A program made the translations under genes and the position numbers. Of a stretch of DNA of 248 nucleotides, positions 1 through 245 are shown one piece after another; position 1 is the first letter of the stretch, and each line of letters opens with the position of its first letter. Source of the DNA: a phage. The notes under the pieces are model-generated. The model made no database searches, was not told where the DNA came from, and was given only the letters and a program-made list of their open reading frames with translations. The DNA is taken from sequence record K01278.1; one strand, 5' to 3'.

Positions 1-31
1 CACTGTCGGCGAAGGTAAGTTGATGACTCAT
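1..31 (-). CDS. insH: IS5 transposase InsH, N-terminal fragment (first 10 codons, 5' partial; gene continues leftward out of window)
   Basis: Minus-strand ATG is the complement of 29-31. Translation ATG AGT CAT CAA CTT ACC TTC GCC GAC AGT gives M S H Q L T F A D S, the recalled N-terminus of IS5 InsH. A weak Shine-Dalgarno-like CAGGG lies 6 nt upstream of the ATG (complement of about 38-42). Confidence 0.8.
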   Translation of the reverse strand, partial: MSHQLTFADS

Positions 32-37
32 GATGAA

Positions 38-83
38 CCCTGTTCTATGGCTCCAGATGACAAACATGATCTCACATCAGGGA
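38..83 (-). promoter_or_regulatory. Leader / presumed promoter region of the IS5 transposase gene, between the terminal repeat and the insH start codon
   Basis: Positional inference only: about 68 bp lie between the terminal repeat and the ATG, and transposase promoters usually sit in this interval. No strong -35/-10 pair could be assigned (TTGTCA and TAGAAC-like hexamers are present but poorly spaced). A GATC site lies at 68-71. Confidence 0.3.
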
Positions 84-99
84 CTTGTTCGCACCTTCC
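84..99. repeat. IS5 terminal inverted repeat, left end, 16 bp (CTTGTTCGCACCTTCC on + strand = GGAAGGTGCGAACAAG on the transposase strand)
   Basis: Direct read of the sequence, compared with the remembered IS5 16-bp terminal repeat. The partner repeat at the other end of the element is outside the window, so the inverted pairing itself cannot be shown here. Confidence 0.75.
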
Positions 100-103
100 C
101 TAA
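100..103. other. CTAA tetranucleotide immediately abutting the IS5 terminus: presumptive target site / one copy of the 4-bp target-site duplication
   Basis: IS5 is known to insert at YTAR (typically CTAA) sites and generate a 4-bp duplication. CTAA directly follows the terminal repeat. The second copy at the far end of the element is not in the window. Confidence 0.6.
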
Positions 104-112
104 GTGATCCCC

Positions 113-158
113 ATGTAATGAATAAAAAGCAGTAATTAATACATCTGTTTCATTTGAA
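113..158. promoter_or_regulatory. AT-rich tract in the flanking intergenic DNA (candidate UP-element or nucleoid-protein binding region)
   Basis: ATGTAATGAATAAAAAGCAGTAATTAATACATCTGTTTCATTTGAA is strongly A+T-rich, with A-tracts and TAAT repeats, and every frame on both strands is closed by stops. Function is inferred from composition only. Confidence 0.3.
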
Positions 159-159
159 G

Positions 160-202
160 CGCGAAAGCTAAAGTTTTCGCATTTATCGTGAACGCTTTCG
201 CG
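160..202. promoter_or_regulatory. 9-bp inverted repeat CGCGAAAGC (160-168) ... GCTTTCGCG (194-202), 25-bp spacer: candidate regulator binding site(s)
   Basis: Exact reverse-complement pair read from the sequence. It is embedded in a cluster of the hexamer GCGAAA (161-166) / TTTCGC (175-180, 196-201) and the near-copy TTTCGT (205-210). The centre of symmetry (about 181) lies roughly 70 bp upstream of the transcription start predicted for the 218-245 promoter. Confidence 0.4.
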
Positions 203-217
203 TTTTTCGTGCGCCGC

Positions 218-245
218 TTCACAGTGGGTTACAGTGGGTTATAAA
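218..245 (+). promoter_or_regulatory. Sigma70-like promoter reading rightward out of the window: -35 TTCACA (218-223), 16-bp spacer, -10 TATAAA (240-245)
   Basis: Each hexamer matches consensus at 5 of 6 positions (TTGACA / TATAAT) with a 16-bp spacer. A GC-rich GCGCCGC lies just upstream. The predicted transcription start (about 252) and the driven gene are beyond the window. Prediction from sequence only. Confidence 0.4.
221..240. repeat. Perfect tandem direct repeat, 2 x ACAGTGGGTT (10 bp unit)
   Basis: 221-230 and 231-240 are identical, and base 241 (A) continues the unit by one nucleotide. The repeat forms most of the spacer between the -35 and -10 hexamers. Confidence 0.9.

Follow-up and report, generated by a model that had tools for sequence, protein, structure and literature searches.

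We found that the cluster of CGAAA/TTTCG motifs in the 248-nt stretch of phage DNA analysed here (the window) is almost certainly the right end, attR, of phage Mu, in which the motif copies belong to the predicted MuA transposase sites R1, R2 and R3, as judged from sequence comparison. The feature is genuine, and its biology was known before. The earlier note on this DNA had proposed a phased array of protein-binding sites, and these do appear to be sites of a sequence-specific DNA-binding protein, but the protein is the MuA transposase and not a transcription factor. For annotation, the value of the result is that an apparent operator array for an unknown regulator turns out to be a well-studied transposon end rather than a new regulon to chase.

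Results

Comparison with annotated phage records by BLAST divided the window into a mosaic of three parts, IS5, the Mu end and a non-Mu flank, and the whole window is explained as IS5, then the tail of mom together with Mu attR, then the flank. The features are as follows.

1-99, minus strand: left end of IS5, with its terminal inverted repeat GGAAGGTGCGAACAAG read from 99 downward
100-103, unstranded: CTAA, the IS5 target tetranucleotide, equal to Mu 36595-36598 in the last codons of mom
100-107, plus strand: remnant of the mom 3' end, with stop codon TGA at 105-107; the end of the mom CDS, Mu 36602, is window 107
146-167, plus strand: predicted MuA site R3, TGTTTCATTTGAAGCGCGAAAG, inverted relative to R1 and R2, 55-76 nt from the Mu end, 0 mismatches to the consensus at 151-167
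168-173, unstranded: R3-R2 spacer, variable in Mu-like phages, with 3/6 positions identical between Mu and D108 or YpM_3
194-174, minus strand: predicted MuA site R2, CGTTCACGATAAATGCGAAAA, 21 nt long here, 28-48 nt from the Mu end, 1 mismatch to the consensus
216-195, minus strand: predicted MuA site R1, CGGCGCACGAAAAACGCGAAAG, 6-27 nt from the Mu end, 0 mismatches to the consensus
217-221, plus strand: CTTCA, the terminal 5 nt of Mu, ending in the conserved CA-3'; the alignment stops at Mu 36717
222-248, unstranded: non-Mu flank, with a perfect 10-bp tandem repeat, ACAGTGGGTT twice, at 221-240, abutting the Mu terminus

Window positions 98-221 align with Mu 36593-36717 at 99.2% aligned identity, and 36717 is the final base of the Mu genome record. 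From 100 to 221 the window carries 122 bp that equal the last 123 bp of Mu save for a 1-nt deletion, with no substitutions; identity to Mu ends at 221 (...GCGCCGCTTCA), and non-Mu DNA follows from 222. The wild-type mom gene ends in ...CCT AAG TGA, its C-terminus translating as ...VQPYPK followed by the stop. Only these 122 bp of Mu lie in the window between IS5 and the Mu terminus, and both the MuA gene and the Mu left end are absent from the 248 nt. Set against Mu attR (NC_000929 / AF083977, approximately 36641-36712), 122 of 123 positions are identical up to the genome terminus, and the two agree in the terminal CA and in how many sites there are, their order, orientation and consensus; the window differs in having IS5 122 bp from the end, in the last mom codons, and in a spacing of 21 bp between the R1 and R2 cores, where Mu attR has 22 bp, the window being one base short in the TTT of CGTTTCAC.

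The other side of the Mu segment belongs to IS5, with window 1-103 sharing 97-99% identity with the IS5 copies of phages P1 and 434; 98 of 99 bases equal the annotated IS5 of P1, and the single internal mismatch is at 75. The terminal repeat (...CGCACCTTCC; GGAAGGTGCGAA...) ends at 99, and the ATG of the IS5 transposase (InsH) stands at 31-29 on the minus strand, its open reading frame (MSHQLTFADS...) continuing past the start of the window. Base 99 is the last with homology to IS5, and from 100 onward the sequence is continuously homologous to Mu. IS5 prefers YTAR as its target, and terminal inverted repeat, transposase start and a YTAR-type 4-bp target are all present; the P1 record annotates IS5 together with a 4-bp target duplication, and beside the P1 copy stands TTAG, which is CTAA read on the other strand. 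IS5 is inserted at, or deleted up to, CTAA nine bases before the end of mom. The IS5::Mu junction had no match in any collection searched, the junction 25-mer being absent from genome and viral contigs, and a literature search on IS5 in mom returned nothing relevant. Among phages, plasmids and complete E. coli genomes, no entry matched as much as 80% of the window. Because the array lies between the IS5 junction at 99/100 and the Mu terminus at 221/222, it sits in a mobile-element context in which neither neighbour is native to it. Base 1 of the window is the last base of the GAATTC (EcoRI) site of IS5 (in the P1 copy, ...CTGAATT followed by CACTGTCGG), and a window starting at an EcoRI site would fit a read from the end of a restriction fragment, or a coincidence.

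The flank beyond the Mu terminus found no match in E. coli genomes, its 27-mer was absent from metagenome contigs, and comparison with plasmids and phages gave chance-level matches only (E about 1). Viral-contig matches to a 17-mer of the flank were rejected as chance because they fell in three unrelated contexts, and no match to the flank strings was found in the literature searched. The 5-bp target duplication of Mu, which falls at opposite ends, fails to explain a 10-bp tandem repeat at one end. CACTGT at 1-6 is a partial reverse complement of the tandem repeat, probably by chance.

The motifs themselves lie where the earlier note had put them: the inverted repeat is exact, with CGCGAAAGC at 160-168 and its reverse complement GCTTTCGCG at 194-202, and TTTCGC recurs at 175-180 and 196-201, 21 nt apart, with TTTCGT at 205-210. 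A repeat search extended the inverted repeat to 12 nt at 92% (157-168 / 194-205) and added a 21-nt direct repeat, 170-190 against 191-211, at 81%. Chance expectation was taken from 2000 dinucleotide-preserving shuffles of the window (200 shuffles for the 17-nt consensus described below). CGAAA/TTTCG pentamers occur 4 times, against a shuffle mean of 0.84, a count reached by 12 of the 2000 shuffles, and all 4 fall inside 56 nt, which was reached by a single shuffle in 2000; RCGAAA/TTTCGY hexamers likewise number 4, against a mean of 0.45, with 2/2000 shuffles reaching that count. The exact 9-nt inverted repeat is weak when taken alone, as 118/2000 shuffles contained one at least as long.

When the 17-nt Mu site consensus YMYNWRAARYRCGAAAR was applied with at most one mismatch, exactly 3 matches were found in the window against 0.01 expected, and 0 of the 200 shuffles reached 3. 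Two of the matches are on the minus strand, at 211-195 (0 mismatches) and 190-174 (1 mismatch), and the third is on the plus strand at 151-167 (0 mismatches). It is on these matches and on the pentamer clustering that the earlier contention of a non-random cluster is upheld. The consensus comes from the GenBank record of D108, which describes two right-end sites as 'transposase-binding sites based upon homology to Mu consensus YMyNwRAARYRCGAAAR', and the aligned D108 counterparts of R1 and R2 are annotated as such sites. Two consensus copies of like orientation thus abut in the window, beginning some 6 nt from the end, and next to them on the inner side is a third copy that is inverted. Craigie, Mizuuchi and Mizuuchi reportedly placed the boundaries of the 22-bp sites in 1984 at 6-27, 28-49 and 56-77 from the Mu end. 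The length of about 22 bp and the names R1-R3 that we use for the sites of the window follow that study in part, and the boundaries agree with the consensus matches.

Each motif copy finds its place in these sites. CGCGAAAGC at 160-168 is the R3 core, TTTCGC at 175-180 is the R2 core and TTTCGC at 196-201 is the R1 core; TTTCGT at 205-210 corresponds to the stretch CACGAAAAA within the 5' half of R1, and GCTTTCGCG at 194-202 straddles the R2/R1 boundary, lying mostly inside R1. The 9-bp inverted repeat arises because R3 is inverted relative to R1 and R2, and the 21-bp direct repeat arises because R2 abuts R1. The spacing of 21 bp, which had been read as two helical turns, is true of this copy, but the cores of reference Mu are 22 bp apart, and the shorter distance in the window results from one base missing from the A-run at 191-192.

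At that place the window reads AA and Mu reads AAA (GTGAACG versus GTGAAACG), so that the R2 half-site is CGTTCAC versus wild-type CGTTTCAC, and the deletion sits in the conserved TTTCA half of R2. No exact match to the shorter R2 variant came from the genome, viral or metagenome collections; R2 has its wild-type length in every one of the 40 E. coli genomes that contain a Mu right end, and the wild-type R1-R2 30-mer had 29 viral-contig matches. The D108 record also has AA at the homologous place, and its close relatives PhiR68_1, Mu_3F6 and YpM_3 have AAA. The AA run is a homopolymer-length change, and may be a sequencing error or a tolerated polymorphism.

The earlier note had proposed phylogenetic footprinting, with a lack of conservation counting against its reading; the repeats proved to be conserved in orthologous right ends, but as transposon-end sites. 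The layout of R1, R2 and inverted R3 was recovered by consensus in SfMu, D108, Mu_3F6 and Yersinia phage vB_YpM_3, and the right end of PhiR68_1 aligns to the same R1-R2-R3 layout; in these five members of the genus Muvirus the three-site architecture is the same, the CGAAA cores are invariant and the last 18 bp (GTGCGCCGCTTCA and the preceding bases) are identical to the window. The CTTCA terminus is unchanged in six of six Mu-like right ends. Between Mu and the D108 group, identity is 58% over window 101-145 and 83-86% over 146-221, from R3 to the end; by element it is 87-91% in R3, 50% in the R3/R2 spacer, 73-77% in R2, with the changes in its degenerate middle, 95% in R1 and 100% in the terminal 5 nt. 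The sites are therefore kept across diverged Mu-like right ends in which the adjoining upstream DNA has diverged. The D108 group departs from the window at the spacer and the middle part of R2, and has an extra D108-specific gene upstream; in SfMu two bases differ just upstream of R3, and R3 itself is identical in the window, Mu and SfMu. In IMG/VR, eight genuine Mu-like prophage ends carry an identical R3-R2-R1 block. The spacer between R3 and R2 reads TTTT in D108 and Mu_3F6 and TTT in PhiR68_1 and YpM_3, and the distance from R3 to R2 thus varies by 1 bp among D108-group ends that are otherwise near-identical.

Discussion

The left and right ends of Mu each have three MuA sites, with different spacings, and each site is bound by a MuA monomer, which bends the DNA through 80-90 degrees; a stable synaptic complex needs only L1, R1 and R2, and R3 can be dispensed with genetically (PMC3145075). 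A minimal in vitro reaction needs no more donor DNA than some 50 bp of the R end carrying R1 and R2; four MuA subunits on a pair of synapsed ends make up the core transpososome, and 5 bp of target DNA are duplicated upon insertion (PMC1475752, PMC3362531). The wild-type form of window 172-221 has been used with purified MuA under the name 'Mu right-end adaptors' (PMC4005685). If the window is read as a Mu right end, MuA would recognise the sites R1-R3 of about 22 bp, each with a conserved CGAAA core, R1 and R2 being arranged head to tail from 6 nt inside the terminus and R3 lying 6 nt further in, in the opposite orientation. Together with L1-L3 and the internal enhancer, the R sites would assemble a tetrameric transpososome, which would nick at the terminal CA-3' (window 220-221) and join the end to target DNA with a 5-bp stagger. 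R1 and R2 would be the critical right-end sites and R3 largely dispensable, and the array would serve as a platform for transpososome assembly adjoining the cleavage site and not for promoter control.

The right end can also be compared with other transposon ends. In Mu attL, a consensus from six Mu sites, nGtttCAnnnnAAangCGAAAn, which is the same as that used here, finds L1-L3, with cores at 11-27, 116-132 and 156-172 from the end, so that the 17-nt core of the first site lies at 11-27 at both Mu attL and the right end. The two ends differ in that L1 is about 85 bp from L2/L3 and the left sites share one orientation, whereas the right-end sites are nearly contiguous and R3 is inverted. Tn7-like elements are reported to have several direct and inverted TnsB sites of about 20 bp near each end, with asymmetric packing and beads-on-a-string binding (PMC9308760); they resemble the Mu right end by analogy only, and their recognition sequence and transposase are unrelated to those of Mu in sequence.

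Within the assignment to Mu attR, a few oddities are left over, namely the deletion in R2, the IS5 site in the last mom codons and the 10-bp tandem repeat at the terminus. The deletion could weaken R2 or shift its phase relative to R1. We consider it unlikely that the deletion is genuine, with the phasing changed from 22 to 21 bp, and that the window comes from an undescribed Mu derivative or a rearrangement product, a reading that draws also on IS5 at the end of mom and on the unexplained tandem repeat. If the deletion were genuine and the end were proficient in transposition, the transpososome would tolerate a one-base shift, equivalent to about 34 degrees of helical rotation.

One could also envision the inverted repeats doubling as RNA hairpins that form an intrinsic terminator of the mom (late) transcript. 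The plus strand does carry two terminator-like hairpins, at 161-180 and 187-202, where shuffled sequences would give 0.3; both are present when the window or wild-type Mu is folded to minimum free energy, and their position is 55-95 nt past the mom stop codon (105-107). However, with z = -1.3 for the window and -2.1 for wild-type Mu, the folding energy does not clearly surpass that of shuffles, what comes after the first hairpin is AUUUAUCG and no U-tract, and the U-run of the second is largely consumed by its stem. Hairpins also follow automatically from adjoining inverted MuA sites, so their conservation carries no independent weight, and no Rfam family scored above noise, the best being the SR6 antitoxin, whose 18.8 bits fall short of its gathering score of 55. 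A terminator in addition to the MuA sites is accordingly quite improbable.

That the motifs are operator sites through which a host or phage transcription factor controls a nearby promoter is scarcely credible, even though the sites are phased, repeated and partly palindromic, as operators often are, and, on the minus strand, stand upstream of the IS5 transposase ORF that starts at 31. The earlier note had set the array upstream of a promoter, which we could not reproduce: a simple consensus scan, which could miss weak or non-sigma-70 promoters, gave 0 sigma-70-like sites on either strand of the window. Nor is there a native neighbour for the array to regulate, the IS5 ORF lying beyond the junction at 99/100 and the other flank beyond the Mu terminus at 221/222, and in intact Mu the sites come after the final gene, where the genome itself ends and there is nothing further on for them to regulate. 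The difficulty that was met earlier in matching the motifs to a regulator was well founded, as no ordinary regulator consensus fits them and the MuA transposase consensus, which the sites fit completely, does so instead. TTTCGCG is vaguely like NagC/Mlc-type operators, and this likeness was set aside because the MuA consensus explains every copy of the motif.

The chance that the Mu-end sequence of the window is a MuA-transposon library-preparation adaptor left in an assembly is practically negligible, for although the 50-bp R1-R2 end is an obvious contaminant in public data and the contaminant copies show homopolymer-length errors like the AAA-to-AA change, Mu identity in the window runs 72 nt past the 50-bp portion, through R3, intergenic DNA, the mom stop and the IS5 target, whereas true adaptor cases lose it 0-1 nt upstream of the 30-mer searched.

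The public records in which the end appears as such a contaminant are of some practical interest. Proteus phage vB_PmiA_PM1, an Autographiviridae record, carries an exact 50-bp Mu R1-R2 end (PQ065999.1 42010-42059). The copy, which falls within an annotated hypothetical protein close to where the record stops and is surrounded by sequence without Mu homology, looks like a MuA-transposon library adaptor left in the assembly. Of the 29 viral-contig matches to the Mu R1-R2 30-mer, 21 (IMG/VR sample 3300045125) are found close to contig termini, at a distance of 16-43 nt, and in these 21 contigs the match is preceded by a noisy common sequence (...TTCGTTCAGTT...GGGTGTTTAACCG) with homopolymer errors, presumably the MuA adaptor of a nanopore rapid kit left untrimmed. 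The 50-bp Mu end as adaptor contamination in phage and viral-contig records is worth filtering out in similar scans.

A Mu right end also lies between a glycosyltransferase gene and the fliH/I/J cluster in NZ_CP026085.1 ('E. coli DH5alpha', 4.83 Mb; 3778790-3778852). This record was dropped as a lead to a laboratory construct, there being no IS5 junction at its Mu end. Its strain label may be wrong, as neither feature is expected in a K-12 cloning strain.
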